DNA of 64,000 nt from Pirellulales bacterium (GCA_963733035.1 CAVTBU010000009.1:192001-256000); one strand, 5' to 3'; numbered from the stretch's first letter, positions 14,615 to 33,284 are shown. A program made the numbers and translations. Notes: generated from the sequence alone by a model not told the origin.

Positions 14615-15039
14615 CTACGTCCACAGGTTCCGGTCGAGCGTGCGGTAGTTGATCGCCTCGCTGATGTGCTCGGGACGGATCGACTCGCTGGACTCGATGT
14701 CGGCGATGGTACGGGCGAGGCGCAGGATTTTGTCGTGCGCCCGGGCCGAAAGGCCGAGTTCGGTCATCGTGGCGCGAAGGAGATTCATACAGGGGTCGTC
14801 CAAGGGGCAGAACTGCCGAATCTGCCGGTGCGTCATGCGGCCGTTGTGACGGGTGCCAGTTCCGGCGAAGCGAGCTTGTTGCACTTCGCGGGCGGCTTCC
14901 ACGACCTCGCGCATCTGGGCGCTGGAGGTGCCCGGCGTTTTCGCCGAAAGTTCGCGGAAGGGAACGGCCGGCACTTCGATTTGGATGTCGATGCGGTCGA
15001 GCAGGGGGCCGGAAATCTTGGCCATGTAGCGTTCGACTT
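14615..15039 (-). pseudogene. comM: 3' part of comM (YifB family Mg-chelatase-like AAA+ helicase), interrupted by the element
   Basis: VERYMAKISGPLLDRIDIQIEV … LGLSARAHDKILRLARTIAD; joins in frame to 33281-34396. Confidence 0.95.
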
Positions 15040-15057
15040 ACGGAACCTTAGAAAACC
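15009..15057. other. Left attachment junction (comM arm + TT core + element arm ACGGAACCTTAGAAAACC)
   Basis: comM homology ends at 15039; the element arm is the inverted counterpart of 33263-33280. Confidence 0.88.
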
Positions 15058-15231
15058 TTACGCCGGAAATGATCGAAGCTTTAGGGGTCATTGATCGGGT
15101 GTTCGACGGCTCGGCTATCCCCCAGGAGAAGCCACCCAGCCCCATGCCTAAGGCAATCTAACCGTTTCCGCCGCATTCGGGGCCACGGAGGGCGCGGGTG
15201 CACCACCTACGCAACAGGGAGATTGACGACG

Positions 15232-16014
15232 ATGTGTCTAGTTGAATCAATCGACCGGGCAATTGAGTTTGTCCGTGAACATGAGCTGCTAATGACGGAG
15301 GACGATGTGGATGAGCTAATACGGATCGCGGGCAGGGTCGTCGAGTTGGCTTTCCGCAGCGGCCTTCATTATGTTCTGCCGGGCATCGACATGCGTTCGC
15401 TGGTTGAATATCCCAGCGTGTCGGAGCCTCCCGTTGTATTGTCCGCCCTCAACGTGCCGGGCGATTGGAGTCGTGATGTTCTTAACCTGGAGGGTGAAAC
15501 ACTTGAACGTGCGTTTCTGCCGTGCGTGCCGGACCGTTGGTACGAAGCAATGATGATTCTACGATCTCTGGCCTGCCGTGACGCTCCTGCGGAGGAGCCG
15601 AACCAGCCCCAACCCAAGAAGCCCAAGGCAAAGGGCATGGGCCGAGAGGAGGTATTCAAGCGACTGGTGGAGCTGTGGCAGCAGGGAGAGCCGTTCACCA
15701 CTTGTGAGGAAATGGCTGAGCGGTTTGGTTGTTCTGATACCACCGTCCACCGAGCAATCCAGCGCAGTGAGAAGCTAAAGGCTTGGGCTGCGAAAGGGCC
15801 GAAGCGTACCCAACGGCTCGATGACGTAGTGCTAGACCGGACGGCTCAGAGCCGGGAGCCCGCACCGGACGATGACGCCCAATTGCGAGAATTGATTGAA
15901 CAGGCCGAACCGTCTTTGCGAGCATTCTTACACACAGTGCCACCCGAGAAACTGCGGCAGATGTCGGCCGATGATTTGAAGCAGCTAGTAGTCAATCCTG
16001 AGTGCAGAGCCTAG
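15232..16014 (+). CDS. HTH DNA-binding protein (putative element regulator)
   Basis: TCEEMAERFGCSDTTVHRAIQR helix-turn-helix; GGGAG upstream of ATG 15232. Confidence 0.65.
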   Translation: MCLVESIDRAIEFVREHELLMTEDDVDELIRIAGRVVELAFRSGLHYVLPGIDMRSLVEYPSVSEPPVVLSALNVPGDWSRDVLNLEGETLERAFLPCVPDRWYEAMMILRSLACRDAPAEEPNQPQPKKPKAKGMGREEVFKRLVELWQQGEPFTTCEEMAERFGCSDTTVHRAIQRSEKLKAWAAKGPKRTQRLDDVVLDRTAQSREPAPDDDAQLRELIEQAEPSLRAFLHTVPPEKLRQMSADDLKQLVVNPECRA

Positions 16015-16021
16015 GCCCAGC

Positions 16022-16085
16022 AGAAACGTTTCTCAGGCATTTCTCCGCAAAAACACGGCATTTCTAGCAAAAACCGGAAACGTTT
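16022..16085. promoter_or_regulatory. Operator-like array: two AAACGTTT palindromes around two GGCATTTCT-N1-2-GCAAAAAC direct repeats
   Basis: AGAAACGTTTCT 16022-16033; repeats at 16036-16054 and 16057-16074; GAAACGTTT 16077-16085. Confidence 0.55.
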
Positions 16086-16133
16086 ACCACCTATAGAGGC
16101 CCGCGATTTTGGGCTGGAAAGGATTGGTGAACG

Positions 16134-16355
16134 ATGAACGACGGTACTGCTCCCCGGCTGCGTACGCCGGGCATTATCGCTGTGGAGTTAAAGGCTCCAC
16201 TCTCCCGAGTGCTCTACGTCTTACGCACTCGCCCCCACATTCGTCCGGCTGCCTACGCTGGCACGATCCGCCTCTACCGCGAAGACGCTGTGGCGATGGT
16301 CCGCCATGAGCTCAACGCGATTGACTCTAGAAAGGGGGGCCGAAGCGATGCCTAA
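16134..16355 (+). CDS. Small HTH protein, excisionase/AlpA-like
   Basis: 73 aa, TPGIIAVEL…RVLYVL…RLY pattern; overlaps the start of the helicase gene. Confidence 0.55.
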   Translation: MNDGTAPRLRTPGIIAVELKAPLSRVLYVLRTRPHIRPAAYAGTIRLYREDAVAMVRHELNAIDSRKGGRSDA

Positions 16356-17943
16356 GCGTGACGACTGCAGGAGGGAAGACCCTATTGCGAAGCGGCCCGA
16401 GTTCAAAAAACGCCTCAAAGAAGCTGAACTGGCATACCAGGTGCGTGACAAGAGGAGCATAGGTGAAGAGCTTACGCCAGAGGAAGAAGACATCTACCTG
16501 TTGGACGTTGCTCGACGTACGGAGCAAGCCCTATCCAAGAGAGATCCAAACGCCAAGTCACCGGCTCGTGCACCACTCCTCACGAGGCGGACGAAACACG
16601 ACTCAACCGATGAGCAAAAACTAGATCGGCTCCGACGTGAATGTGCGGAGTTTAACGGACCACCGACCCTTGGCCCGCACGGTGACCTGCGCACGATGGC
16701 CCAGGTGTTGGCTTTGCTTCAACATGCCACGCCATTGCGTGACGCGTTCCTGGAGGGAGTTGGTATTCCACCGTCCGCTCTCTCAGTCCGTGTTTGTGAC
16801 CGACTATCCCACGGGATTTTGGAGGATCTTGACCGCACGGAGGCGTCAGGAATCTGGGATATACCCTGGGAGAAGCTAGAGATTGATCGCCAGGAACGTC
16901 GTCCACGCCAAGGCATCAACACCCGTCGATTGTCGGACGTTTTGGCCCATGAAGTCGAATGGCAGTGGCCAGGCGTGACCGCCCTAGGAAAGTTGACCCT
17001 GTTCAGCGGCAATCCAGGCGTGGGTAAGACCTGGCTGGCGTTGGATATCATAGCCCGACTTACAACCGGTCGCCCTTTTCCGCTCCAGGCGAATCCGCCC
17101 AACGTTGACCGTAAATTTCCAAAGGGTGAATTACTTGTCGGCGGGTCAATCCGGCGCAATGCGTTGTTCATAAGTGCGGAAGACGCAGACGAAGATACCG
17201 TCAAGCCACGAATCGAGCTACTTGGTGGCGATTCGACGCGGATTCACACGTTGGACTTCATTTTTGAGAACCGCAATAGAAGAACCCTCTCGCTCGCGGA
17301 CCATATCAACTATTTAGACAAGTGGCTCTTTTCTGAGCCGATGGTTGAACTCGTGGTGATTGACCCGCTAACCGCGTTCCTGGGGAAAACAGACAGTCAC
17401 AAGAACGCGGACGTGCGAGCCGTCTTGGAGCCGTTATCGAAAGTGGCGGAAAAACGACGCGTAGCCATCATCGGCGTCAACCATCTCACCAAGGGAACGG
17501 AAGGATCAGCCGTACATCGCTCGATGGGCTCGATTGGCTTTATGGCTGCTGCCCGAGTCGCATGGCAAGTCACTGCCGATCCTGATGAGCCAGACCGTAG
17601 CCTAATGCTGCCCGTCAAGGTCAACATCGGGAAGACCCCACGGGGCTTAGCGTTTCGGCTCAGCGAAACGACCGGCATCGAGTGGGAACAGGAAAGCATT
17701 GATCTGACCGCTGACGAAGCCCTCAACGGACCACGCGAGAGCAAGCTTGACGACGCTAAGGACTTCTTGCGCAACCTGCTGCGAGAGGGGCCAATGCCTG
17801 CGACGGCGGTGGAGGACGCAGCCGCGAAGGCAAGAATCTTCGGATCGACACTCAAGACCGCCAAACGGCAACTCGGCATCAAGTCCGAAAAGAGCCCGGC
17901 ACCGAACGGCGGTTGGGAGTGGCGGCTACCGGAGCGTCGGTAA
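16348..17943 (+). CDS. AAA (RepA/AAA_25-type) replicative helicase of the element
   Basis: Walker A GNPGVGKT, ISAED, Walker B LVVIDPL, NHLTK, GSIGFMAAAR; RBS AAGGGGG before ATG 16348. Confidence 0.85.
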   Translation: MPKRDDCRREDPIAKRPEFKKRLKEAELAYQVRDKRSIGEELTPEEEDIYLLDVARRTEQALSKRDPNAKSPARAPLLTRRTKHDSTDEQKLDRLRRECAEFNGPPTLGPHGDLRTMAQVLALLQHATPLRDAFLEGVGIPPSALSVRVCDRLSHGILEDLDRTEASGIWDIPWEKLEIDRQERRPRQGINTRRLSDVLAHEVEWQWPGVTALGKLTLFSGNPGVGKTWLALDIIARLTTGRPFPLQANPPNVDRKFPKGELLVGGSIRRNALFISAEDADEDTVKPRIELLGGDSTRIHTLDFIFENRNRRTLSLADHINYLDKWLFSEPMVELVVIDPLTAFLGKTDSHKNADVRAVLEPLSKVAEKRRVAIIGVNHLTKGTEGSAVHRSMGSIGFMAAARVAWQVTADPDEPDRSLMLPVKVNIGKTPRGLAFRLSETTGIEWEQESIDLTADEALNGPRESKLDDAKDFLRNLLREGPMPATAVEDAAAKARIFGSTLKTAKRQLGIKSEKSPAPNGGWEWRLPERR

Positions 17944-17954
17944 TGCTATCCCGC

Positions 17955-18114
17955 GACCCCTTCACCCCCTTCGACTCCTTCGACAAATCTCCCACAAAAT
18001 TTGGGGGTAATCGAAGAAGGTGGTTTCACCCCCTTCGACTCCTTCAACTCACCAATTTTTGAAGGGGGTGAAGAAGGTGAAGGGGACGAAGGGGGTGAAG
18101 AAGACGAAGAAAGT
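17955..18114. repeat. Putative replication origin: convergent arrays of 9-bp iterons (ACCCCCTTC / GAAGGGGGT)
   Basis: Exact 21-bp repeat TTCACCCCCTTCGACTCCTTC at 17961-17981 and 18025-18045; six GAAG-led 9-mers in reverse orientation at 18061-18114; A/T runs between them; immediately after the helicase gene. Confidence 0.7.
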
Positions 18115-18226
18115 TACCCCCATCGCACACCCGGACTGACACCCTTGTTGCCTTCCCCCAGGAAGCAGTCGCTAGACGACGCTTGTGAAGGTTGCGAAGC
18201 AAACTGACCAACGGAGAAACACCGCG

Positions 18227-18445
18227 ATGACTGAACGACTCGCTAGGTACGAAGAGTTGCTGAAACGGGCTCGCCTAAATGTCCTGCTGCTACGGCGGGA
18301 GATTCTGCGAGTGGAGCGGGCGATGGGCAAAGGACTGCCCCCGCTCGACATAGAGCCTTGGCGTGTAGAGGTTTTGGACATGCGACGGATTGAGAAAGTG
18401 ATTCTGGGCCTAATCGAGTTGGAGAAAAACCGCACGCAGACTTGA
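18227..18445 (+). CDS. Small hypothetical coiled-coil protein
   Basis: GGAGA RBS, 72 aa MTERLARYEELL…. Confidence 0.55.
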   Translation: MTERLARYEELLKRARLNVLLLRREILRVERAMGKGLPPLDIEPWRVEVLDMRRIEKVILGLIELEKNRTQT

Positions 18446-18533
18446 CTTCCTGAATGGGGACATACGATTGTTATTAGCGTATAACCCACTTGGGTGGTTA
18501 GATATCCCCTCATTCATAGGAGAGACTAGCGAG

Positions 18534-19139
18534 ATGGCTATAGACTATTCAAAGTTGATTGGGAAGCGTTCAAAGTTGATCCCCATCGTCCCAACTTCGG
18601 ACCTGTACTTAGCGAACCTGGCAAGAGACTGCGCCGACGGGCACCGCTTCGCCAGAATCTTTAGGGATACATGGCGTCAGATTCCATTGGGGGATCGGCG
18701 GCGAATGGTGAAGCATTGGCACACCGATGAAAGAATGGATTCTGGCTGGTCCCACCCGCGTATATCGCGGAGGATGGAGCGGGAAAGATTTCCCATCTCG
18801 CGTTCTGATTACATTGCGAGTATCCAGCTAATTGCGGGCTGGAATAAAGAATATATCTACCCACACTATCTACCGGACGACGCCGAACATTGCGGTGCGT
18901 TTGTCACTGTCGCCGCAATGGGTCATAAGTTATGGTTCCACGCGCCATCGGTTGCACGGATGCCGGACAATGTTGTGGCGAACTTGATAGCCAAGGGGCT
19001 GGCTCATGTGTATCAGTGGGCGACAGAGCCGGAGCTGTTTGACGATCCAGATGACCCAGGCAACACGGAGTACCTTGAAGGGGACGCCAACCAGAAAGTT
19101 GAGAGTTGGGGCTTTGAACTGTACTCGATTGAGGAATAG
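18534..19139 (+). CDS. Hypothetical protein with degenerate zincin-like motif
   Basis: AGGAGA RBS; LIAKGLAHVYQ…EGDAN resembles HExxH…E with the first His and the Glu replaced. Confidence 0.55.
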   Translation: MAIDYSKLIGKRSKLIPIVPTSDLYLANLARDCADGHRFARIFRDTWRQIPLGDRRRMVKHWHTDERMDSGWSHPRISRRMERERFPISRSDYIASIQLIAGWNKEYIYPHYLPDDAEHCGAFVTVAAMGHKLWFHAPSVARMPDNVVANLIAKGLAHVYQWATEPELFDDPDDPGNTEYLEGDANQKVESWGFELYSIEE

Positions 19140-19165
19140 CTGCACTCCCGAGCTGGATGAATCGA

Positions 19166-19206
19166 CCATCTACAGAATCCAACAACCCACTACGCCTACC
19201 CCTAGC
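19166..19206 (+). repeat. 41-bp direct repeat, copy 1 (CCATCTACAGAATCCAACAACCCACTACGCCTACCCCTAGC)
   Basis: Identical to 26873-26913. Confidence 0.95.
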
Positions 19207-19261
19207 ACTCACGGCTGGCGAATCGCTTCGCTTTATCGTGTTGCAGTCAATGAAGTGCCTG

Positions 19262-20449
19262 TCAGTCTGCATCGCCAAACGCGAGCAGCTCACCGCCTTT
19301 GCTTAGAAACAGCAGTTTCCCATTGGTCATCAAACCTTCGATTCGCTCGCTATCGGAAGCACCGATCTTCCATTTCAATTCGCCGTTGGCTGCGTCTAGC
19401 CCGTAGAGCTGGCCGTACAAGGTGGCAACATATACCAACCCGCCACCGAGAAGAGGCGGATCATAAATCGGCGCACCATGACCTGGAACATAATCGCATT
19501 TGAATTTCCAGATCATCTTGCCAGTTTCTGCGTTGAGTCGATAGACGCTCCCGTTGAGGGATCCAAAAAATACAGCGTCGCCTTGCACGGCGGCAGCGGC
19601 TTCCACCTCGAAGCCGCAATGGAAATCCCATTTAACCAGGCCAGTTTCCCTGTCAAGGCAATACAAACGCCTATCCTTTGAACCGATATACACATACTTT
19701 TCAGTGACAACAGGATTGCCGTAAATCCAACCCTTGGTCTGAAAGGACCATTTTACCTGCGCCGTCTCGCAATTAATGGCAACGATTCGCGACTGATCAA
19801 AGATAGGCTGAAACAAGGTCTTTCCATCGGTGGCCGGCATCCTGGGCCTGGCTCCATCAGCGCCAATTCGGCCTCGCCTAGCATCGAAACCGGGCGGCGA
19901 CGGTGGTGCGTCCTTCAGCAAGTCGACAGTCCACTTGCAAACGCCAGACTTTGCATCAAATGCATAGACTAAGCCGTCTTCCGCCATGAAAACCAACAAA
20001 TCGCCGATCATCACCGGCACGAAACCTTGTGAGCCCGTCTCCCGTGTCCAAACCACGTTGCCGTTGGAGGTGTTAATCGCGACCACGTATTTCTCCGTCA
20101 AAAAGTACGCAACGTCGGCCATGACCAAAGATAATTTCAGTGGCGCTGCGTACGCTGGGCAGTTTGCATACCGTAGCAATGTTCCGTCAGAAGCTCGGCA
20201 TGAGCTCAGCTGCTGGCGATCCACCGAATAAAGGAGGTCGCCAGCAGGAATCACGTTCGTTCCATGCTGTCTCCAGACAACCTTTGGTTCGTGTTCCAAT
20301 TTCAGTCTCGAATCGCAATTCGTTCTGGCTTGGTCCACTTGCAAAATCGCATCCGCGCCATAAAGTAGCGCCCTCGCATCGAGAGTAAATGACAAGGCCA
20401 TGGCAAGAGCCACACTTGTGTAACGTGCGGGCCGCTTAGTGTTCAGCAT
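19262..20449 (-). CDS. PQQ-like (BamB-type) beta-propeller repeat protein, exported
   Basis: Repeated xxYAxDxxTGxxxW blades; signal-peptide-like N-terminus. Confidence 0.85.
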   Translation of the reverse strand: MLNTKRPARYTSVALAMALSFTLDARALLYGADAILQVDQARTNCDSRLKLEHEPKVVWRQHGTNVIPAGDLLYSVDRQQLSSCRASDGTLLRYANCPAYAAPLKLSLVMADVAYFLTEKYVVAINTSNGNVVWTRETGSQGFVPVMIGDLLVFMAEDGLVYAFDAKSGVCKWTVDLLKDAPPSPPGFDARRGRIGADGARPRMPATDGKTLFQPIFDQSRIVAINCETAQVKWSFQTKGWIYGNPVVTEKYVYIGSKDRRLYCLDRETGLVKWDFHCGFEVEAAAAVQGDAVFFGSLNGSVYRLNAETGKMIWKFKCDYVPGHGAPIYDPPLLGGGLVYVATLYGQLYGLDAANGELKWKIGASDSERIEGLMTNGKLLFLSKGGELLAFGDAD

Positions 20450-20643
20450 GACGATTTTCCCCAAGGTGATTAACGAGCCAAGCGAAGAGAGCTCAGCGAC
20501 AAAAGATCCTGGCAAAGATCACTATAGCGAAGGTGCGCCGAGCGGTAAGTGGGCTGCCTACCCTTGACCGCCAAGCTGCTCCCGAGCGGCAACACCACGG
20601 AGATCAGAAACAGCATTCCGCGGTCTTGCAAATCTCGGGACTC

Positions 20644-20662
20644 ACAACCCACTACGCCCACC
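20644..20662 (+). repeat. Partial third copy of the 41-bp repeat
   Basis: ACAACCCACTACGCCCACC vs ACAACCCACTACGCCTACC (18/19). Confidence 0.75.
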
Positions 20663-20700
20663 TCAATCCAGCTCCTCTCGCACGTTAGTTATAGGGCTCA

Positions 20701-20733
20701 GTAAGTCGAACGCTACATGGCCAAGATTTCCGG
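20701..20733 (+). repeat. 33-bp perfect inverted copy of the left att junction (comM fragment + TT core)
   Basis: GTAAGTCGAACGCTACATGGCCAAGATTTCCGG is the reverse complement of 15009-15041. Confidence 0.95.
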
Positions 20734-22299
20734 GGCGTTGGTGACAGGTTCCTGGTTTCGCATCCAGACGATGCCGCGCTCCAGTCGGTACTTGGACCGC
20801 TTGCCCCAGGGTCGCTTATCCGTGAAGATGTCCACGCGCGAGATTGACCCGCGGAAGAATTGCCGCAGTAGATGTGGATCGGCTTTCGTGGCAGCCTCCC
20901 TGAAGCGTCCAAACCACTCTAGAGCAGCTTCGACCCTCCTGTCTATGTCATCGCCCTTCGTGCGTGAATTGGACGCACAGGACGCCAGACGGGCTTCTGC
21001 AGCCACACGTTGTCGACGCAATCCTCTGATCTGCTCTTGTACGTCGTCAAGCAGATCGGCGTCGACTTCCACCAGACGTTGCTTGGCCTTGGCCAGCTTC
21101 GCCTCGATGGCATCAAGTTCACGACGCAGTGCCTGCGGCTCGGGTTCCCGTTTCAGTTCCTTCAGTTGGCGTCTCATCGAGGATGCCAACTGCGCCAGGG
21201 TCTCGGGGTTGTAGTACCGTTCCTGCAGGCCATCCAGCACGCCGGCAACGATTTCATTCTGGCGTAGGGTGTTGCGGTCGCAGTACGTCTTCCCGTGCTG
21301 GCGGTATCCGTAGCAGGTGTAGTGGTGCTTGCCGTTCGACAAATCGCCGATCATCTTGTGCCCACACTTGCCACAGCGCAGCACTCCCGAGAGTACGAAA
21401 CCACCGCCGCTTGGGTGCGGTGTGGAGCAGTTCCTGCGCTCGGCCAACTGCTGCTGCACCCGGTCGAACGTATCCCGGTCGATAATCGCCTCATGGTGAT
21501 CCTCGAAGACGATCCAGTCGGCCGCGTTGTTCCGTTGCTCGGGGCGGCCCTTCCGCTTGTATTTCGACATGCAGCGCATGTTCCAGATGTAGTCTCCCAC
21601 GTAGACCCGGTTGCGGAGCATTCCAGCGATTCCGTTCGCTGTCCAGCCCTTCCCCTTGGGTGATGGTCGGCCTGAGTTGTTCAGCTCGTCGGCCAGCCCG
21701 CGCAGGCTCTTGGCCGCTAGGTACTCGGTGAAGAGCCAACGAACGAGCGCGACATCCTCTGTTGGCCCCAGCAAGAGTCGCTTATTGACCGCGACGTACC
21801 CCAACGCCGGCTTGCCGGATGCCCACAGGCCCTGCTCTGCGAGGCTAGTCATGCCGCGCGTGACATTCCTCGACAGATCGGTCAGGTATTGGTTCTTAGC
21901 CTCCTGCTGAATGCCGTACAGTACTCGACCAGCGAAGTCCCCCCAATCGATGAACCCTTGGGCGACGGTCGCGAGATGTACGCCAGCCCTGCGCAGTGGA
22001 AAGATCCAGTACCCAGCCTCGAGGGAATCAAATCGCCCGAACCGATCAATATCCCAACACAGGATCGCTTGGAACTTCCGGTGTTGTCCGTCTCTGACCA
22101 TCGCTTGGAATTCACGCCGCTTGTCGGTCGCATCGCCGCTGATTCCCTCGTCGATGTATTCACGAACGATGTGATAGCCGTTGGCCTTGGCGTACTTCTC
22201 GACTGCCGTCCGTTGGTCAGGAATCGAGGTTTCCTGTCGGTCGGTGCTCATGCGGTAGTAGGCCACCGCAGGGATGTAGTTTTCATTCGTCGCAATCAC
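20713..22299 (-). CDS. Large serine recombinase #1 (catalytic + recombinase + zinc-ribbon domains)
   Basis: YYRMSTDRQ (catalytic Ser), DEGISG, DRFGR, LSGVLRCGKCG, YTC…C, coiled coil; GGAGG RBS with GTG start. Confidence 0.93.
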   Translation of the reverse strand: MIATNENYIPAVAYYRMSTDRQETSIPDQRTAVEKYAKANGYHIVREYIDEGISGDATDKRREFQAMVRDGQHRKFQAILCWDIDRFGRFDSLEAGYWIFPLRRAGVHLATVAQGFIDWGDFAGRVLYGIQQEAKNQYLTDLSRNVTRGMTSLAEQGLWASGKPALGYVAVNKRLLLGPTEDVALVRWLFTEYLAAKSLRGLADELNNSGRPSPKGKGWTANGIAGMLRNRVYVGDYIWNMRCMSKYKRKGRPEQRNNAADWIVFEDHHEAIIDRDTFDRVQQQLAERRNCSTPHPSGGGFVLSGVLRCGKCGHKMIGDLSNGKHHYTCYGYRQHGKTYCDRNTLRQNEIVAGVLDGLQERYYNPETLAQLASSMRRQLKELKREPEPQALRRELDAIEAKLAKAKQRLVEVDADLLDDVQEQIRGLRRQRVAAEARLASCASNSRTKGDDIDRRVEAALEWFGRFREAATKADPHLLRQFFRGSISRVDIFTDKRPWGKRSKYRLERGIVWMRNQEPVTNAPEILAM

Positions 22300-22381
22300 A
22301 ATCCCGAGCCTCCATGGTTGAGATCAACAGTTGACATTGAGAAAACCAGATCGGCGACAATTCGTCAAGGAAACGCCACCG

Positions 22382-23047
22382 CTAGACCTCTCCCAATCTG
22401 TGGATTGAGTAATCCTCGACCTTATCCCAAAGGATGGTCACTACGCCGTTTTGCGTCATCACCGCAATGCCCGGATCGTTGTAGAGCACGTACCCGGTCG
22501 GCCCCGCGTCGTTATGACCGATGATAACCTTCCACTGCTGGGGAATCGGAACTTTGATGCCTTCAATGCGATGGAGTTCAATAAACCGTCCACTGTTTCG
22601 CAATTCGATGCACGCCTCAGAGAATTCCTCGAGTTGCGATACAGCCGACTTGGAGAGTTGCTGGTTCACAACTGTTTCTACTAGTCCAAGCGTTAATGCG
22701 CGACTCACGACGGACGTGAACGATCCAATAAAGAAGAGCCCGCTGCTGAAACCCTTGAACTTGGCTTCGATTTGCCGCTGGATGCGTTCAGCGGCACGTA
22801 CAAAGCCAACATCGAACATGAGGATTGCAGAACAGACGTGCTCACGACCGGAAACCATTCGTATTCTGGCCACGATGGGGTCCGGTGGGACGGGCTCAGC
22901 GAGTGGTGGCTCCATGCTACCGCCGACCATTTCGTCGGTAAGGCGGACAGGCTGTTTGCACGACGGACATGACACGACCCGGCCGACTAGTCTCTGGTCA
23001 TACTTAATGCGTCGGCCACACATGGGACAATTCGTTGTGGCACTCAT
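22382..23047 (-). CDS. Hypothetical protein with N-terminal zinc ribbon
   Basis: CPMC…CPSC, Pro-rich linker, hydrophobic segment. Confidence 0.6.
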   Translation of the reverse strand: MSATTNCPMCGRRIKYDQRLVGRVVSCPSCKQPVRLTDEMVGGSMEPPLAEPVPPDPIVARIRMVSGREHVCSAILMFDVGFVRAAERIQRQIEAKFKGFSSGLFFIGSFTSVVSRALTLGLVETVVNQQLSKSAVSQLEEFSEACIELRNSGRFIELHRIEGIKVPIPQQWKVIIGHNDAGPTGYVLYNDPGIAVMTQNGVVTILWDKVEDYSIHRLGEV

Positions 23048-23123
23048 GCACGGCAGCCCTCGCGGCTTGGATTTGGAAATATATCCCCGCCCCCAGTTCG
23101 CCCAGGGGCGGGGTCAGGGACGC

Positions 23124-24264: not shown

Positions 24265-24305
24265 CGTCGGTCACGGCAAGCAACCTCAATTGCATTTGGA
24301 GCGAT

Positions 24306-24908
24306 ATGGTGCCACTACCCGATGCGGAATTCTGGCTGAAGACCCTGACTCCTTGGGCTGCGATTGTCGGCGCCGTTACAGGCGCCATAGGCCTAGGGCT
24401 CGGTATCTACAACCTGGTCCTGGCGCGAAAGTCACACAGAGTTAAGGTAGTGATTGAATGCAGTCTAGGCGGGAGCAATGTAGGGAAGGCGGAAGGAGGG
24501 GAGCCGATTCCGCAAGACCGCTGGCTCACGATCAAGATTATCAACTGCAGCTACTTTCCGATTACAGTGGACCGCGTAGGCCTCTCCATTCGGAAGCGGC
24601 GCTTGGCTAGGAGTAAGTTGTTTACGGTTCCACTCCGCAAGGATGTCTTTACCAAGCAATTGCGAATCGAATCTCGAGACGCAACTGAAGTCAAGTTATA
24701 CCTGGGCCGCCGAAGTCGGTTTGAGAAGTCGCGGTCTTTCGAGTATCTCAGCCAGCACACCGAAGAGCAAATTGTCGGTGCATTCGCGCACTTACCCACA
24801 GGTCAGACTTTCGTCGGTGGACGTGAGGATGCGCGAGCGGCATTGCGAGAGATGCGTCAAGTGTTCGAGTATTTCACCGAACATCAACTTCACCACACGA
24901 AGCAGTAG
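24306..24908 (+). CDS. Hypothetical membrane-anchored cargo protein
   Basis: GGAG RBS; N-terminal TM helix WAAIVGAVTGAIGLGLGIYNL; IKIINCSYFPITV. Confidence 0.65.
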   Translation: MVPLPDAEFWLKTLTPWAAIVGAVTGAIGLGLGIYNLVLARKSHRVKVVIECSLGGSNVGKAEGGEPIPQDRWLTIKIINCSYFPITVDRVGLSIRKRRLARSKLFTVPLRKDVFTKQLRIESRDATEVKLYLGRRSRFEKSRSFEYLSQHTEEQIVGAFAHLPTGQTFVGGREDARAALREMRQVFEYFTEHQLHHTKQ

Positions 24909-24912
24909 TCCA

Positions 24913-25830
24913 TCACGAGAACGGCCCCGGGTTCAGCTGGTTCAAGTCCGCGTATGCGAACCGGTTGAACGCCAAGTAGATCGCTGGCTGGCCCTCAGGC
25001 AGGATGGTGCCATCCTCATCGAGGTTGACCGTCATCGGCTCGCCCGTCTTCCGGTCGATGACGCGCTCTGCAGGCAGGCCGGGAAACGGCCGTGCGTAGT
25101 TGCCGTAGTTCAGCGCGGTACCCTTCCAGGTGTTCTCTGCAAACTGCCCCGGGTTGTCCGGGTCTTCCCTCAGCCGGAACCGAATCCGATAGGTGACGTG
25201 CTCGTAGATATCGCCGTTCACGTCCTCCTCGTCGGTTTCGATGTCATACAGCCACGCAGTACCGACCGGTGCGCCGTAGAACTCGGTCGCGCTGATCCGG
25301 TTGTGGAACCCAAGGAACACCGTAGGGTCGAAGGGAAACAGCTCGTAGCGGGTGACCTCGCGAATGTAGTCCCCTGAGGGCCCAGTCACCACAAGCGGCT
25401 CGCCGGCCGCAGTAGCGATGGAGTCTCCGGTCAAGACATCACGGGGCAGCGCCTCGTCGACCGTCTCACACCGCCACTTGCATATCGGCCGCCGGTAGAG
25501 TGGGTTCTCATCCTCGTTCGCGTTGGTGTAGCTGATGTCGTTCGTCAGCTTGGCGGTAACATCCCACAGCAGGCCTGGCAACCCGGTAATCGGGTTGCGG
25601 ATGGGACTCACCTCGCGGGCATCGTGATCCATCACCACCATGCCACGGTACAGCGTGCCGATCTGGGGAACACCGACTGCCCCGCAGATCTGATCGTAGT
25701 CCTCGGTGAGGCTCGAGACGACCTGAAAGGTGCGTGAGGCTTCGCGCTGCTTGTACCACAGCTTGTCCTTCTTCACCAACGCGATCTTGGCCGATTCGGT
25801 TTCGGCTTTCTCGCCAAGGCTAACCGCCAT
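24913..25830 (-). CDS. Hypothetical phage protein (possibly structural or tail-associated)
   Basis: 305 aa, host-like codon usage, TGATG-coupled to the upstream CSD gene and downstream of the capsid fragment; function inferred from context only. Confidence 0.5.
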   Translation of the reverse strand: MAVSLGEKAETESAKIALVKKDKLWYKQREASRTFQVVSSLTEDYDQICGAVGVPQIGTLYRGMVVMDHDAREVSPIRNPITGLPGLLWDVTAKLTNDISYTNANEDENPLYRRPICKWRCETVDEALPRDVLTGDSIATAAGEPLVVTGPSGDYIREVTRYELFPFDPTVFLGFHNRISATEFYGAPVGTAWLYDIETDEEDVNGDIYEHVTYRIRFRLREDPDNPGQFAENTWKGTALNYGNYARPFPGLPAERVIDRKTGEPMTVNLDEDGTILPEGQPAIYLAFNRFAYADLNQLNPGPFS

Positions 25831-26036
25831 CAGTCGAGCACCTCCACTCGCTCAGCACGCGGGCCACGGCCGGTGTCCTTGCCCAGCTCGAACTCGACGC
25901 GCTTACCGACGAGGTCGCTATTGAGTCTGCACCGGACGAGCGCGGAATGATGAAAGAATACGTCCTTGCTGATGTCCGCGCAGACGATGAAACCGAAACC
26001 GTACAGGTCTTTCACTGCCGAAACCAAACCCGTCAC
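25830..26036 (-). CDS. Cold-shock domain (OB-fold) protein
   Basis: YGFGFI (RNP1), DVFFHHSAL (RNP2), VEFE…GPRA; GGAGG RBS with GTG at 26036. Confidence 0.8.
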   Translation of the reverse strand: MTGLVSAVKDLYGFGFIVCADISKDVFFHHSALVRCRLNSDLVGKRVEFELGKDTGRGPRAERVEVLD

Positions 26037-26154
26037 CGCGATGGCCCTCCGATAGTGTTTCGTGGCGGGCCGCAGTCGCCGAACTACGGACCCGCCGCAC
26101 GGCCGAGGCAACTCAATCAAGCCGTGATTTCCTTGTTAGTTTGCTACGCCTGGT

Positions 26155-26866
26155 TCAGCTGGCGTCACCGCTCGACATGATGGCGAACTGCTCATCGCCC
26201 TGTGCCACGCCGAAGTCGTGGTAGCCACGCCATTGCATGCCCAGGGTGTTGAAGTCGGTCTGGCTGGACTCGATGGTCGGAACCGCGCGGCCGTTCAGGA
26301 GGGCGACCACGATTGCAGAACCAATTGAAGGTTCGGACATCAGGAACCACACAGTGCTGCTCTGGTTGCTGATTCCGCTGCCGTCCGGCTTCTTGATGCC
26401 GGTCACGTCCAGGTACTTGCTCTTCACGGGACGGTAGCGGCCTTGGTAGATGTTCTCGGTGCCGATCTGCGATCCGTTCGCGTCGACCGACAGTAGGGTC
26501 GTCTGTCGATACAGATTCGTCGCGGTGACGATCTGGGCAGTGCCCGTGAGCAGGATGGCTGGATCGGCCATAATCGGCTTTCCTCCTGCACCGGTGAACT
26601 TGCCGAAGGCGATTTCCCCGGCCTCCAGGCCCCCGATCGACAGCACATCATCGATCAGGTTGTTGTTGCCGACCGAGAAGAAACTGCCCGTGTTCGACAG
26701 TAGGGTGTCGTACACCTCCGATTCGATGGCCCAAACAGCACCATCAGCCAGACCGTTGAGCACCTGACGGAAGGCGTCCAGGTCGTCGTTGATGATGTGC
26801 CGGCGGTCGAGCGAAAGCATCCGCCCGCGGGTCTCCGCCTGCACGGTACGCTTCGAGTCCGACAGC
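26155..26866 (-). pseudogene. C-terminal fragment of a phage major capsid protein (Mu gpT-like), 5' truncated
   Basis: TRGRMLSLDRRHIINDDLDAF…LNGRAVPTIE…LGMQWRGYHDFGV; the frame is closed by TAG just upstream, next to the 41-bp repeat. Confidence 0.75.
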
Positions 26867-26872
26867 TATTCT

Positions 26873-26913
26873 CCATCTACAGAATCCAACAACCCACTAC
26901 GCCTACCCCTAGC
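26873..26913 (+). repeat. 41-bp direct repeat, copy 2
   Basis: Identical to 19166-19206; about 200 bp upstream of the resolvase. Confidence 0.95.
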
Positions 26914-27039
26914 CGAAACCGCAGCTGATCCTCGCCCGGATCGTAAAGCGTCAATGTCGCTGCGCTAGCCCCGTCGATTCCCGAGCGTTCTGCCCCTAGC
27001 TGCCCCCTCTGACCGTAACGTTTCGGCTCTAGTCGATAA

Positions 27040-27070
27040 TTTACTACGTGTGTGGTAGAGCGTAGACTAA
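27040..27070 (+). promoter_or_regulatory. Putative sigma70 promoter (TTTACT-N17-TAGACT) with operator-like spacer
   Basis: 24/31 identical to 27770-27800. Confidence 0.6.
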
Positions 27071-27114
27071 GGGTAACGGTACGTATGTTCACTACGATAC
27101 AGGAGGGGCGAACC

Positions 27115-27714
27115 ATGAAGCATATTGCGATCTACTTGCGGGTATCCACGACCGGACAGGACACGAAAAGCCAGCTACCCGACCTGGAACGATGGGCTGC
27201 GGCTCAATCCGATCCGGTCAAGTTCTACAGCGACAAGGCGAGCGGTAAGACGATGGACCGGCCGGGCTGGGCGAAGCTAGAGGCAGCGATTCGACAGGGC
27301 CGCGTTAAGGCTGTCGTAGTGTGGAGGATTGATCGACTCGGCCGCACCGCCAAAGGGCTTACTGCGCTGTTCGACGAACTACGCGAGCGGAAGATCAACC
27401 TAGTCTCGCTACGCGATGGCCTGGACCTATCGACCCCGGCCGGGCGGTTGATGGCGAACGTGCTTGCGTCTGTGGCTCAGTATGAAACCGAAGTGCGGGG
27501 CGAGCGAGTAGCAGCCGGGCAAGCCAAAGCACGGTCGCAGGGCAAGCGTTGGGGCGGCTCGCAACCGGGAGTGCGGAAGAAGGTCACCGATACGCAGCTC
27601 AAGGCTATCCACTCGATGCGTGCGAACGGCGAGCGTATCACCCATATCGCCACCGCTCTGGGGCTCTCTCGGCCCACGATCTATGCCGTCCTACGCGAGC
27701 CCGCAGCAGCGTAA
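27115..27714 (+). CDS. Small serine recombinase (resolvase/invertase family) with C-terminal HTH
   Basis: YLRVST, DKASG, RPG, DRLGR, DLSTPAGRLM, AQYE, LGLSRPTIY; AGGAGG RBS. Confidence 0.93.
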   Translation: MKHIAIYLRVSTTGQDTKSQLPDLERWAAAQSDPVKFYSDKASGKTMDRPGWAKLEAAIRQGRVKAVVVWRIDRLGRTAKGLTALFDELRERKINLVSLRDGLDLSTPAGRLMANVLASVAQYETEVRGERVAAGQAKARSQGKRWGGSQPGVRKKVTDTQLKAIHSMRANGERITHIATALGLSRPTIYAVLREPAAA

Positions 27715-27769
27715 AGTGAGGGCCGAGTGGAGCCTACGAAATACCCCGCAGATACTGGGCAGATAACGG

Positions 27770-27800: not shown

Positions 27801-27824
27801 TAGTAAGCGATGGGGGTATAAGCA

Positions 27825-28220
27825 ATGCCCAGAGTCAGCAGGGGCACCCGAACCAACCAAAGCCATAAGGGCCGAGTCTTGCCTCCCAAGTACACAGCCG
27901 GGTTTCTCACAACGCTGGACGGCCGCACTGAGTTGGCCCGTGGTCTACGCGAGCGGTTTGACTCGATTGTGGCCGATCTGGGCGGACCCGGAGAGCTATC
28001 GCAAATCAAGGCATCGCTGGTTGAACGGTTTGTCTGGCTGGAAGCATCGTTGATGAGCATCGAAGCAGCGATGGCCGAGACGACCGACCCGAAGCAGTAT
28101 GCCGACCTAGTTGCCCGCTGGACTCAGGCTTGCAACACGCTGCTAGGCATCGGTAAGTCGCTCGGCATTGACCGCAAGCTTGGCTCGGCGCCTTGGCTGG
28201 CGGAGGCTAAGCAAACATGA
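27825..28220 (+). CDS. Putative terminase small subunit
   Basis: 131 aa helical protein (DGRT…DLGG…LGIDR), ATGA-coupled to the terminase large subunit; call rests mainly on position. Confidence 0.55.
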   Translation: MPRVSRGTRTNQSHKGRVLPPKYTAGFLTTLDGRTELARGLRERFDSIVADLGGPGELSQIKASLVERFVWLEASLMSIEAAMAETTDPKQYADLVARWTQACNTLLGIGKSLGIDRKLGSAPWLAEAKQT

Positions 28221-29845
28221 TCGACGCCCAACAGTACCAGCTCTATGCCTCCAATCCGGCTGCCTTCCGCGATGATCTCAACGTAGAGGTAAGCGGCTCG
28301 GTCTGTCGCTTCGGTGATATCCAGGACGACTGGCAGCGTCGTGACTTTGAATCCCTAGACCCGGCTTGGCTGCGCTGTACAGGCAGGGACCACGGCGACA
28401 ACGCAATACGGACACGCGGCTACCTGGAACGCGGACGCGGACACTCCAAGACAACCGACCTAGCGATGATGGCCATCTGGGCCTTGGCGTTCGCCACTCG
28501 CTCACTGCGGGGCTACTGCTTCGCTGCCGACAAGGATCAAGCCGCGTTGCTCCACGATGCGATGCGTACGCTCGTGCGCTTGAATCCCTGGCTGGCTGAG
28601 ATCCTAGAAGTTCAGCGGGAACAGGTTGTAAACGTCGCACAAGACCATCGGGGCAACGGGAGCCGATTAACGATCTTCACCAGTGACGTCGGATCGTCCT
28701 ACGGTATCCTCCCGGACTTCATCATTGCCGACGAACTAACGCACTGGGCTGGTGATGGCTCGCTCTGGTACTCGATCATCAGCTCTGCCGCCAAGCAGAC
28801 GAATTGCGTGCTGGTCGTTATCTCCAACGCGGGTTTCGTCGACTCATGGCAGTGGAACGTCCGGGAAGCGGCTCGCAACGATCCTAGCTGGATCTTCTCT
28901 CGGCTCGATGGGCCAAGGGCTTCTTGGCTGACCAAAGATCGACTAGCCGAACAACGGCGCATGCTTCCGCCCATAGCGTATGACCGGCTGTGGGGAAACC
29001 GTTGGAGTTCAGGCGGTGGCGATGCCTTAACGGAGGAGGATATCCAGGCCGCATTCGACAACAACCTGCGGCCGATGACCGGTCGTGAATCAGATTGGGT
29101 ATTCGTAGCGGGACTGGATTTAGGGCTCAAGCGTGACGGCTCGGCCGTGGTTGTACTGGCGGCACCGGTCAACGGTCGCAACGGCGGTAGGATTCGCCTA
29201 GCTCATCATCAACTCTGGCGTCCTCAGGATTCAGGCGGCAAGGTCAAGCTGACGGAAATCGAAGACCATATCAAAAAGTTGGATCGGCGGTTTAACCTGC
29301 GATGCGTTGGCTTCGATCCATGGCAAGCCGAACACATGGCCCAACGCCTGGAAGTCCATTCCCGGCACCGTAGCCGCAGCTCTCGCTTTCGCTCGATAGA
29401 TGGGCCCTGGATGCGGGAGGTACCGCCCACAGGCGGCAACCTTCGCACAATCGCCAACCTAACCATCGAGACGTTCACGGATCGTCGGTTAATGCTCTTC
29501 GACTGTCCGCCGTTGGAGCGTGACCTACGCAAGCTGCGAGCGGAAGAGAAGAGCTACGGCGTTCGCCTTACCAGCCCACGCGATGAACATGGCCACGGCG
29601 ATAGCTTCACAGCCCTTGCCAATGCCTTGCTGCTGGCCCATGAGATAGCCGGTGAAAAGGTAATCACGCTCCAGGCTTGGGGCAGCGGGATGCCGTACGA
29701 CGATGGCGATGAGGAAGACGACCGGCACGCGATTGACGACTACCTGGAAGAAATGGAGTACCTGGAGAGCTTGCCTGATGGACCAGAGCGAGTGATTCGA
29801 GGCATCGAACACTGGGAGAACAACACGAATGACCCACTACTTTGA
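28217..29845 (+). CDS. Terminase large subunit
   Basis: Walker A RGRGHSKTT, AADKDQA, Walker B FIIADE, ISNAG coupling motif, nuclease AGLDLG…FDPW…HGD. Confidence 0.85.
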   Translation: MIDAQQYQLYASNPAAFRDDLNVEVSGSVCRFGDIQDDWQRRDFESLDPAWLRCTGRDHGDNAIRTRGYLERGRGHSKTTDLAMMAIWALAFATRSLRGYCFAADKDQAALLHDAMRTLVRLNPWLAEILEVQREQVVNVAQDHRGNGSRLTIFTSDVGSSYGILPDFIIADELTHWAGDGSLWYSIISSAAKQTNCVLVVISNAGFVDSWQWNVREAARNDPSWIFSRLDGPRASWLTKDRLAEQRRMLPPIAYDRLWGNRWSSGGGDALTEEDIQAAFDNNLRPMTGRESDWVFVAGLDLGLKRDGSAVVVLAAPVNGRNGGRIRLAHHQLWRPQDSGGKVKLTEIEDHIKKLDRRFNLRCVGFDPWQAEHMAQRLEVHSRHRSRSSRFRSIDGPWMREVPPTGGNLRTIANLTIETFTDRRLMLFDCPPLERDLRKLRAEEKSYGVRLTSPRDEHGHGDSFTALANALLLAHEIAGEKVITLQAWGSGMPYDDGDEEDDRHAIDDYLEEMEYLESLPDGPERVIRGIEHWENNTNDPLL

Positions 29846-30311
29846 ACGTATGGCTAAAGAGGCCGAACACTTCTATGCATTTACAGACCGCATGGGTTCT
29901 GAGCCGGTGTTTGCCGGGGGATGGTGGTACTTCAAGAACGGGGCTGTAAGCGATGGTTTCCGGTCGCATCACGAACCGCCAGAAGACCCTAACGAATTGC
30001 TCAAGAACCGATACCGCTATGCCGTCACAAGACTCGACGAGCTGCTAGACCTATACATCCACAACAAAAAAGTGATCGCCGAGCAAATTGACATCCATCG
30101 CATGGGGGCAGGACCAATGCCCGCGTCGGGCTGGGACGACGGGATGAAATCGCTCCGATCAAAAGTCCAGGTCGCTAGGGCCGTCGTCCGCTTGCTGTTG
30201 AAGAGACACCTACCGGACGAACAACCTGATGACGATTACGACAAGAACGAAGCACGGCGAGAGCTGACAGACAGCGCCCGTCGCACACTCGTCAAACTAG
30301 AGCGAGAGTAG
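29829..30311 (+). CDS. Hypothetical protein
   Basis: 160 aa, overlaps the terL end, inside the operon. Confidence 0.6.
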   Translation: MTHYFERMAKEAEHFYAFTDRMGSEPVFAGGWWYFKNGAVSDGFRSHHEPPEDPNELLKNRYRYAVTRLDELLDLYIHNKKVIAEQIDIHRMGAGPMPASGWDDGMKSLRSKVQVARAVVRLLLKRHLPDEQPDDDYDKNEARRELTDSARRTLVKLERE

Positions 30312-30315
30312 AGGC

Positions 30316-31149
30316 ATGCTGACGCTTACCGTCAACCTGACCGCCGCAGCTCGCAGCGAATCAATCAACGGACGGCCCTACCTGGTCGCTCCAATGACGT
30401 TGATCGTGCCGGGAGTCTTGAACGGCAGCAGGGGCCCGTTGCTCTATCCGCCCGAAGAGATTGAACGGAGCGTAGCGGCCTGGAACGGTGTACCGCTCGT
30501 GTTGGGCCACCCTCGCAACAGCAATGGCGTTCCTATCTCGGCTCGCTCGCTGGAGATTCTGAACCGGATCGGCCTAGGTTTCGTCCAGGGAGCCCGCACG
30601 GAGAACGGCAAGCTGATGGCGGAAGGCTGGTTTGATGTAATCCGCATGAAAGAAGTCCATCCAGCGGCCCTTGCTCGACTTCAAGGCGGACTACCGCTTG
30701 AACTGAGTACGGGGCTCAACACCGACAACTATCGGGCCACGCCTGGATCAACCTACAACGGCCGAGCCTACCATGCCGTGGCTCGCAACTACGAACCCGA
30801 CCACCTAGCAATCCTGCCGGAAGACAAAGGAGCCTGTTCCCTTAACGACGGATGTGGAGTCCTAAACATGCGATATGAAGATTTCAACCAATACCCCCAA
30901 CAGCTTGTTCACAACGGAGTGGTCTACCAGCCGGTAGGTCCAGTAGCCAACGACCTGAATGAAGAGCTGCTGGAAGAGCCGACGATCAACTGGCGGGAGT
31001 GGGCCGGCTGGGAAGATCCCAAGCCCGCAGCTCAGCCTTGCTCGAATCGTGCCGCAACAGAGAACGTCCAAGCTGATCCGAACGACATCAACGCCGAGAA
31101 GCTTGAAGAGGCGGATATCAACTGGGCCGAGTGGGCGAAAGGGAATTGA
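30316..31149 (+). CDS. DUF2213-like phage head protein (prohead protease/scaffold-like)
   Basis: GVLNG, WNGVPLVLGHP, ELSTG, PDHLAILP…GACS…DGCG. Confidence 0.75.
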   Translation: MLTLTVNLTAAARSESINGRPYLVAPMTLIVPGVLNGSRGPLLYPPEEIERSVAAWNGVPLVLGHPRNSNGVPISARSLEILNRIGLGFVQGARTENGKLMAEGWFDVIRMKEVHPAALARLQGGLPLELSTGLNTDNYRATPGSTYNGRAYHAVARNYEPDHLAILPEDKGACSLNDGCGVLNMRYEDFNQYPQQLVHNGVVYQPVGPVANDLNEELLEEPTINWREWAGWEDPKPAAQPCSNRAATENVQADPNDINAEKLEEADINWAEWAKGN

Positions 31150-31207
31150 ACACGAACACAGGCGGCAAGTCAGAGCGGGAGTTGTTCCCTGACTCGCTCC
31201 TTCGCCG

Positions 31208-31518
31208 CTGAGGGGTCGGGTTGGACTTTCCTCATTGGTCTGCCCGGCCCCTCGGAAAACAACTAAGCGGGGCTTTACGTCCGTGGGTTCTGCTTGGGGG
31301 TAACGACCGGGCTGCCGGGAGCGTATCCGGTGGCTCGGTCGTCTAAATCAATTGTGACTTTTACGCCTCCTTTACCGCACATGGGGGCAGGCGAATAATT
31401 CCGAAATGGCGGCACGTGTCGGACTAATTACCCGATGCGGGCTATCTCTCTAGCGACTTCAGATAGCCAGCCGCCTGTTTTTCTCTTACCCGAAGTCGCG
31501 GAAGTCGCGGAAGTCGTA
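31208..31518 (+). ncRNA. Candidate structured RNA or long integrase leader
   Basis: Hairpins 31208-31255 and 31303-31342 whose non-Watson-Crick pairs are G-U on the + strand; hairpin GGCTATCT/AGATAGCC at ~31440-31468; tandem GAAGTCGCG x2 + GAAGTCGTA before the ATG. Confidence 0.4.
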
Positions 31519-31520
31519 CC

Positions 31521-33284
31521 ATGTCCAAGAAGCTGATGCCGGCCGCAGGCTACCTTCGTAAGTCAACGGCTGGAGAAGGTAAGGAAGGTAAAGAGCGTCA
31601 AGAAAAGTCCATCCCTACTCAAAAGGCTGAGATTGAAAAGCTGGCCAAGGCAGAGGGCTACAAGATCGTTCGCTGGTACGCCGATCCCGGCATCAGCGGA
31701 TGGAAGAGGGGCGTCAAGCGTCCAGACTTTACCCGGATGATTGCCGAAGCGCAGCAGCTTCGGGATATCCAAGCCATCGTCTGCGACGACATCGACCGAT
31801 TTAGCCGTGCGGATATGGATGAGGTCCAAGCTGATGTGTTCGCTCTGAAACAGGCGGGAGTTCAGTACATCATTACCGCAGCCCAAGGCGTCTATGACCT
31901 GGGCAGCCACGGCACTGACTTCGGTAAGGTTGTAAAGTTCATGGCCGACGTGTGGGGCTCGAATCAATTCAGTCGCAAACTGTCTCGCCGGATAGCTCGG
32001 GCTCGCCGTGATGCCGCTAGGGAAGGCAAGCGGAGCGGGGGAAGTGCCCCGTACGGCTTGGCCAACGACGGTAAGGGCGGGCTGAAATTTGGTAAGCGTT
32101 CTGAGGTGAAGATCGTTCGCCGTATCTTCGATGAATTCGTCAAGCAGCTTAGCTCGATGAACGCCATCGCCAGCCGACTCAATGCCGACAAGATACCTGC
32201 CCCCAGGGGTGGCGTCTGGCATGTCGCCACGGTGCGTGATTTACTCATGCAGCCAGCCTACGCGGGAGAGTTCACCTACAACCGCAAGCAATCCGGCCAG
32301 TTTCATATTCTTAACGAGTCGGGGGAAGTGGTTGAGGCAACTCCCGAGACTCGTAAGAACCACTGGAAACTGAACGACGCAGCGGTTATCTCCAAGCCAA
32401 AAGCCCACAAGCCTCTCGTTGATCGGACGGTGTTCAACGCGGCGCAGAAGCGGCTCGCCAGCTTCAGCCTCAAGGGAAATCGACGCCCACGTGAGAATGG
32501 CTACCCGCTGGCTGGTATTTTGATCTGCGACCATTGCGGCAAGCCCATGTACGGCTGTCATCAGAAGGGTCGCAATTACCGCGTGTACCGCTGTAGCACC
32601 CCCGGCAAGTCCGGGATGGGAACATGCGGCGCATACGAGATTCGTGAAGAGCGCATTTTGCCCTTTGTACTACAGCTACTCGGGGAGGAACTGGAAAACT
32701 TTGACCCACTAATGGTTAATCCACCGGATGAGCTTCTCCCCTCAAACCGGGATGAAAAGCGGGCAGAACTACAGGAAGAACGTGATGCGTTGGCCAAGCG
32801 AATTGAACAGGCCGAAGAGAACCTGTTGTACGCTACTGATCCTCGCACCCGCAAAAATTTTGACGTACGGGTATGCCGGTTGCGGGCTGAGCTAGACCAA
32901 CTCGATGCACAACTGAATACCCCCACAACGCGGCGTGGCTTTACTGACGATGAAATCGAGGGGCTGAACACATTCTGGAATCGTTTTCATGAGGATGCCC
33001 TTTCAATGCCCATCCCAGACGGCCGAGCAGATCCGTGGTGGATCTGCTTCCAACGCCCAATGCACGATAGTGATGCGTGGGAGCGACACATTGCGGTAAG
33101 GCCACGACAGGTGAACGAGATACTACATATGCTGGGCGCAGAGGTGCGGCTCCGGTGGAATACCCAGCATGTCACCCTAGCCAACGGTAAGACCCAGAAC
33201 CGATACACTCTTTGCCGTGGCCGTTTCCGTTTGAGCCAAAAAGCTGGGAAAATACCACGTCCGGTTTTATCGTGTTCAGCTTGA
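31521..33284 (+). CDS. Large serine integrase #2 (cognate integrase; its 3' end spans the right att junction)
   Basis: [35 protein letters not shown]…C, coiled coil; the stop TGA overlaps comM sequence. Confidence 0.93.

Follow-up and report, generated by a model that had tools for sequence, protein, structure and literature searches.

A large serine integrase gene that probably spans its own attP and loses a conserved-motif tail on integration, in a phage-like element of a Pirellulales bacterium

Large serine integrases are models of unidirectional recombination and are widely used in genome engineering, the direction of the reaction being thought to be set by coiled-coil contacts together with a separate directionality factor. 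In the canonical phages that encode them, the phage attachment site (attP) generally lies beside the integrase gene (int) and not inside it. For the clostridial serine recombinase TnpX of Tn4451, the circular joint of the element creates the promoter of the recombinase gene, so that expression is tied to the state of the element. According to the descriptions cited below, an attP embedded in a gene is already known for tyrosine integrases, of the Mx8 and SSV types, and for repressor or regulator genes. For phage Mx8 (IntP/IntX), the cited passages place attP within the integrase coding sequence, where integration gives a recombinant gene with a new 3' end, and report that the prophage form of the integrase is altered, not inactivated (PMC6070905, PMC4383910). 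The 'suicidal' archaeal integrases of the SSV type are described, in the passage cited, as having the recombination site within the integrase open reading frame (ORF) (PMC7253208). In mycobacteriophages of the BPs/Brujita type, prophages of M. abscessus and the corynephage CyranoPS, the cited excerpts locate attP near the 3' end of a gene, and in this integration-dependent immunity the piece lost on integration is often an ssrA-like degradation tag (PMC8092301; 10.64898/2026.10.29.762952). Here we analyze a stretch of 64,000 nt from a Pirellulales bacterium, hereafter the window, in which a phage-like element interrupts the host gene comM. Its large serine integrase gene very probably spans attP, with the free form carrying a tail that contains a conserved motif, and the integrated form an arbitrary tail or none.

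The ends of the element and its attachment sites were read from the window sequence, and the ends were joined in silico. The comM gene is disrupted at a TT core dinucleotide by the element, which covers positions 15040-33280 plus one copy of the core (~18.2 kb), and at the junctions attP and the bacterial site attB share nothing but this 2-bp core. On the minus strand, an intact comM is regained when 34447-33283 and 15037-14618 are fused via one cAA (Q) codon. The uninterrupted sequence ...DCHCT[LV]P[QV]/IERYM... is found at the exact insertion point (slash) in 7/7 relatives examined, three of them from the same genus. The N-terminal part of the window comM is 64-77% identical to the comM adjoining related integrases, and the C-terminal part is 62-87% identical to the comM of relatives. 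Read outward from TT, the two ends of the element are symmetric at 18 of 32 positions (the inner positions are given in Table 1), an imperfect inverted repeat that, judged from the sequence, has the expected anatomy of a serine-integrase attP.

The integrated int gene encodes a protein ending ...PVLSCSA, with gct-TGA as its last codons. The stop is assembled from T33282, the second T of the core, and the comM bases G33283 and A33284, exactly the letters named in the original prediction made on this DNA. Joining the ends yields an ORF of 627 aa versus 587 aa in the integrated state, and the translation of 15039-15161 equals the 40-residue extension that had been proposed. As integrated, these codons are cut off from any upstream frame by an in-frame TAG at 15027-15029, while the integrated ORF retains all Pfam domains and 587 of the 627 residues. 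Taken together, the junctions, attB and the joined ORF bear out the proposal that attP lies inside the integrase gene and that the C-terminus is swapped on integration.

The window protein is a large serine recombinase by Pfam, by sequence search of the PDB and by fold. The resolvase-type catalytic domain PF00239 is matched over residues 8-170 with an E-value of 7.8e-19, PF07508 with 1.8e-20 and PF13408 with 7.2e-13, and R13, K14 and S15 are invariant across an alignment of 26 integrase sequences. In the PDB the window integrase matches the SPbeta integrase (E 4e-13). A Foldseek search with the AlphaFold2 (AF2) model of a relative, P0022, retrieved the integrases of SPbeta (9dxf, E 4e-20), Bxb1, phiC31 and LI, with E-values ranging from 4e-20 to 1e-07. 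This model has long helices at residues 398-457, in keeping with a coiled coil embedded in the zinc-ribbon domain.

Relatives of the integrase were sought in metagenome contigs (51 loci) and viral contigs (3 loci). The attP form was seen in 0/3 loci of the viral contig scan and in 1/51 of the metagenome scan. The latter locus, L005, is an 8.9-kb metagenome contig whose integrase (P0022) is 45% identical to that of the window and whose gene order (TerL, a 160-aa protein, DUF2213, int, tail, next gene) is that of the window, circularly permuted. Its int ORF crosses a site resembling the window attP (agc-TT-ac) into a tail with VDVAFDG, and from its sequence L005 is read as the uninterrupted, unintegrated arrangement.

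Two further relatives are integrated in other genes. In L062 (also L013 and L012), the element of a 47% identical integrase sits at the start of ispH, and its other end, 9.5 kb upstream, carries ...LDSLDVDRVFDGG... with the motif DVDRVFDG. This tail is in frame with int across a shared TTCCG.CA, and the CA lies at the midpoint of an 11-bp inverted repeat. The element of L056/L084 (44% identical integrase) interrupts a 777-aa peptidase-like gene within its final codons, and the other end of the element carries ...SLLAKVDVVFDG... with the motif VDVVFDG. Comparison with L087, a 93%-identical ortholog of the target gene without the element, gives TGGCC as the shared core, after which the int frame enters the tail; the TG of TGGCC is the midpoint of a perfect 10-bp inverted repeat. 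Alignments of this junction on GGTT or on a G-run were ambiguous or out of frame and were replaced by the one from the empty site. Together with the window element, the open frame is thereby restored in 3/3 integrated elements with both ends visible. The same tail is found in ten database proteins (P0022, P0037, P0072, P0073, P0082, P0138, P0147, P0154, P0156 and P0165) and, weakly, in P0136. The check for an open extension conserved in amino acids among relatives, which the original prediction had put forward, thus has a positive outcome, in one attP-form contig, the three integrated elements and the ten database proteins.

The tails of 13 integrases, which are 35-50% identical, align on L..[IV]D[RV][VA]F[DS]G. 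The motif lies 17-25 residues (~55-75 bp) past the crossover, beyond the symmetric arms of the ~50-bp attP. The six-frame translation of the window, 127,996 residue positions in all, contains the strict form of the motif once, at the tail. By the strict regular expression in L062 and the relaxed one in L084, it occurs solely at the corresponding element ends. The relaxed scan of 12 loci gave seven hits. Six of them, inside unrelated ORFs or without the context, were set aside, and that of L084 alone combines an element end with the right context. An internal ATG at 15069 in the window could start a 30-residue peptide (15069-15161, plus strand) that contains the motif even in the integrated state. 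This ATG is probably incidental, because the L062 tail has no such start. In L062 (11690-12658, and likewise in L012 and L013), the integrated int ORF lacks a stop ahead of ispH and continues, in the ispH frame, across the start codon of that gene as far as its stop; gene callers would therefore predict an integrase-IspH fusion in these relatives.

At the level of the whole family, a word-indexed search gave 164 relatives, of which the best 120 were considered, and a profile search of 1.84 billion representatives contributed its best 150. About 93 of the best 120 of the 164 relatives are 37-56% identical to the window integrase, and those bearing names are from Planctomycetes. The relatives considered share a C-terminal domain ending R-F-R-L-G-Q..G..P..VL..SA and diverge directly after it. 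A regular expression for this domain end matched 122 of 250 proteins, whose tails comprise 20 antisense read-throughs of comM, nine free-form tails by regular expression and 93 that are other or very short; P0154 has a further free-form tail missed by the family expression. The comM-derived tails are antisense comM in another frame, comparable to a frame-3 reading of the window. Grouping the 93 other tails by common 4-mers gave mostly low-complexity, Arg/Ala/Pro-rich read-throughs and three small clear groups. The integrases of L001, L006, L011 and L004 abut the same comM position as in the window. Across the family, the crossover thus lies just inside the 3' end of int, and integrated copies end in host-supplied sequence. 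The tails of integrated forms range from 0 to ~25 or more arbitrary host-derived residues, the window having none. On this comparison, the arrangement characterizes an entire family of planctomycete serine integrases with differing protein-coding targets (comM, the ispH start, the 3' end of a peptidase gene and others). One consequence is that gene callers supply such proteins with meaningless host-derived tails, 20/122 family proteins ending in antisense comM.

Several points weigh against reading the tail as a conserved part of the free-form enzyme. The open frame of 40 codons is by itself within chance: a frame stays open for at least 40 codons with a probability of 0.46 when all frames of the window (60% GC) are taken and of 0.26 in shuffled sequence, in line with the caution that had accompanied the original proposal. 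Within the motif, TTC-GAC-GG is invariant in the four DNAs, which preferred codons in GC-rich DNA would also give; L005 and L084 share 6/7 motif codons, and tail DNA amounts to four sequences, too few for a real ratio of nonsynonymous to synonymous substitution (dN/dS). Motif-bearing tails are a minority (~10/122 database proteins), and their DNA context is seen for 1/10 of the database proteins that have them. Excision of the window element and production of the 627-aa protein are predicted from the joined ends, and among the public sequencing runs searched none holds the window stretch, the best share being 0.10, with contigs of other metagenomes. Two of 14 tails (P0037 and P0156) end in -AA and the window tail ends in -KAI, which speaks against a uniform ssrA-type degron; that candidate was dropped. 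Any function of the tail is purely inferred.

Since the open frame alone is within chance, conservation in relatives decides. If the frame had stayed open by chance and without function, the ends of the element merely falling near the int stop, the probabilities above would be unsurprising, but the motif is kept in the 13 tails of integrases that are so far diverged, it is found in the six-frame translation of the window exactly at the tail, its occurrences in L062 and L084 are confined to the corresponding ends, and in L005 the gene is continuous. Chance, already disfavoured, is therefore a very improbable explanation. What goes beyond chance is the conserved motif, not the open frame.

A second explanation would keep the motif and dismiss the frame: the conserved stretch may be constrained as DNA, either because the integrase, a host protein or a directionality factor uses it as an accessory binding site, or because it is a promoter or operator of the left end, with the reading frame incidental. 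Consistent with this, TTCGACGG is invariant in all four available DNA sequences, the genes of the left end are co-directional and start 0-290 nt after the tail, and in the window the P and B arms flanking the core have a sequence like that of the motif DNA (GTGTTC.A.C). That resemblance is, however, not seen in L005 or L062. Third positions vary in 4/7 motif codons, the variation among the four DNAs being synonymous (GAT/GAC, CGG/AGG, GTG/GTA/GTT and GGC/GGG) and Arg being encoded by both CGG and AGG, and the substitutions across the 13 tails (I/V, R/V/E, V/A/T and D/S/G) are conservative in the protein. Moreover, the frame is open across the junction in all three integrated elements, and the attP of known serine integrases measures 40-50 bp in published abstracts, short of the motif. 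We therefore consider a constraint on the DNA unlikely.

A third explanation places the constraint on translation itself, which would run through attP and couple int to the first genes of the left end, so that the circle rebuilds an operon and the peptide is irrelevant. In L005 the int stop does overlap the start of the next gene (ATGA), and every element is a single co-directional gene array from tail to int. Such coupling is not general, since the next start lies ~70-290 nt past the tail stop in the window, L062 and L084, and it leaves the conserved amino-acid motif in the middle of the tail unexplained. It is, in our judgement, even less probable than a constraint on the DNA, if not as improbable as chance.

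To return to a tail that acts as protein, the AF2 model of P0022 was computed from an alignment of 58 sequences. The body displays a mean pLDDT (predicted local distance difference test) of 88, compared with 55, 48 and 38 for the tail, where only short helices are modeled. The model also contains an extra beta-rich domain at residues ~486-565. The tail is thus predicted to be disordered and is probably a short linear motif that is not part of the fold. A prediction of the complex between the body (residues 1-565) and the tail (566-605) scored 0.01 and gives no verdict. A beta-clamp-binding motif was dropped as a candidate, since its consensus, QL[SD]LF, is incompatible with [IV]D[RV][VA]F. Of the roles that can be proposed, a docking peptide that tunes integrative activity and synapsis, or directionality, seems the most likely, with a chance that we put just short of even; a stability signal or degron is possible and less likely, and some other role accounts for the remainder.

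The following sequence of events would account for these observations. The large serine integrase of the element would have placed it in comM. As long as the element is free (attP state), int would encode 627 aa, with the TT crossover 40 codons ahead of the natural stop. On recombination with attB in comM, these 40 terminal codons would be carried to the attL end, 18 kb from the rest of the gene and behind the in-frame TAG. The integrated gene, of 587 aa, would end at the TGA to which the core contributes one T and comM two bases, and the tail would return on excision. The motif would then act only where the enzyme is produced from the free element, following infection or excision, and by analogy with IntP/IntX of Mx8, the prophage-form enzyme, having lost the tail through integration, would be altered in activity. 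If so, serine integrases might sense their own recombination state through gene structure, the free-form-only motif switching directionality, activity or lifetime from within the enzyme, in addition to a directionality factor or in its place, a suggestion that we make tentatively. A tail present before and absent after integration offers a testable extra layer of control and natural pairs of enzyme forms to compare. It also follows that, in such families, the form that carries out integration is not the one obtained by mining integrated prophages for integrase sequences.

Beyond the window, comM seems, on the sequences at hand, to be a recurrent target of several serine-integrase lineages in this phylum. 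In L059 (10001-12162), the C-terminal part of comM comes in sense orientation after a relative of the integrase that is ~49% identical and frameshifted. This element thus occupies the same comM position in the orientation opposite to that of the window, which would need the complementary core dinucleotide. In L071 and L072 (G315:C1 and G285:C4), distant large serine recombinases, 26% identical to that of the window, abut the antisense N-terminal part of comM at an earlier position (residues ~346-365). A genome of the same family (G439:C1:5093804-5095301) has two matches to the C-terminal part of comM ~650 bp apart, with open frames of 619 and 178 aa, perhaps duplicated in the course of a further insertion there.

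The genes of the element are collected with its other features in Table 1. The packaging module consists, in order, of a 131-aa protein, TerL (28217-29845), a 160-aa protein and a DUF2213 head-protease-like protein (30316-31149). AAA_25, the 131-aa protein, TerL, DUF2213 and int are common to the 11-12-kb relatives. The variable region, which also contains a cold-shock protein gene, amounts to a stretch of ~9.7 kb with a second recombinase, a PQQ propeller and a small resolvase, and may be a nested element or cargo. Elsewhere in the same genome, G000:C5:79262-108280 (L066-L069 and L083) holds at least two further large serine recombinase genes, with open frames of 667 and 591 aa, and contig C4 has one more match.

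Table 1. Coordinates of the element, its attachment sites and the flanking comM parts in the window.
Feature	Position	Strand	Remarks
comM C-terminal fragment (host, B arm side)	14618..15037	-	translation starts VERYMAKISGPLLDRID
attL core dinucleotide TT	15038..15039	.	sole sequence common with attR at the junction
40 codons and TAA that continue the int ORF solely when the element ends are joined	15039..15161	+	
P' arm of attP, left end of the element	15040..15062	.	dyad symmetry with 33258-33280, 16/23 inner positions
Codons of the conserved tail motif I-D-R-V-F-D-G	15090..15110	+	
HTH (helix-turn-helix) protein, first element gene after the tail	15232..16014	+	start is the ATG at 15232; HTH_11 E 4.7e-05, under the Pfam cut-off
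AAA_25 primase/helicase-like replication protein, shared core gene	16306..17943	+	51% identical in L056/L084
Variable/cargo region	18000..27750	.	absent from the 11-12-kb relatives
PQQ beta-propeller protein	19262-20515	-	cargo region
Second large serine recombinase, 528 aa	20713-22299	-	32% identical to the first; cargo region
Capsid/protease fragment	26155-26844	-	cargo region
Small resolvase/invertase	27052-27714	+	cargo region
Packaging/head module	27825..31149	+	common to the window, L005, L056 and L062
Large serine integrase, integrated form, 587 aa	31521..33284	+	Pfam Resolvase, Recombinase, Zn_ribbon_recom
P arm of attP, within the last 8 int codons	33258..33280	.	dyad symmetry with the left end
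attR core dinucleotide TT	33281..33282	.	second T begins the TGA stop
comM N-terminal part (host, B' arm side)	33283..34447	-	ends ...DCHCTLP

A literature search for a serine integrase with attP in its own gene found no description, most subscription journals being outside the search; the matches, as far as the retrieved passages go, were instead tyrosine integrases, repressors and a regulator of a filamentous phage. What appears to be new here is a self-spanning attP in a serine-integrase family that targets protein-coding genes, together with a defined conserved motif. The window system resembles SPbeta SprA, phiC31, Bxb1 and A118/LI in domain architecture, fold, 2-bp crossover and dyad-armed attP; unlike these canonical enzymes, its family has the extra C-terminal beta-rich domain, which ends at the crossover. 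The junction of Tn4451 acts on transcription, whereas that of the window alters the protein sequence. We take the 'magnesium chelatase' gene targeted in phage WO to be of the comM/YifB type. The sr1WO serine recombinases integrate into this gene and split it across the prophage, in an unrelated host lineage (Wolbachia), and the passages cited here make no mention of an attP inside the recombinase ORF (PMC9203015).

Among the systems with a gene-embedded attP, the BPs-type precedent invoked in the original prediction is real and shares with the window the difference between free and prophage C-termini; as the cited passages present it (PMC8092301), though, it concerns repressor genes and tyrosine integrases, whereas the window integrase would rewrite itself, attP lying in int, and IntP/IntX of Mx8 is the closer parallel. 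In the SSV type, going by the passage cited above, integration splits a tyrosine integrase gene in two, whereas in the window it leaves all the catalytic and DNA-binding domains whole and replaces only the last 40 codons. With Mx8, as portrayed in the descriptions cited, the window has in common an attP embedded in int and a C-terminus that changes on integration. The Mx8 integrase is, however, a tyrosine recombinase with tRNA-linked targets, in contrast to a large serine recombinase with a 2-bp core, protein-coding targets and a short, predicted-disordered tail with a conserved motif. By analogy of gene layout, the window system may thus be regarded as the serine-integrase counterpart of Mx8 IntP/IntX and not as a member of that type, because its integrase has serine recombinase domains only.

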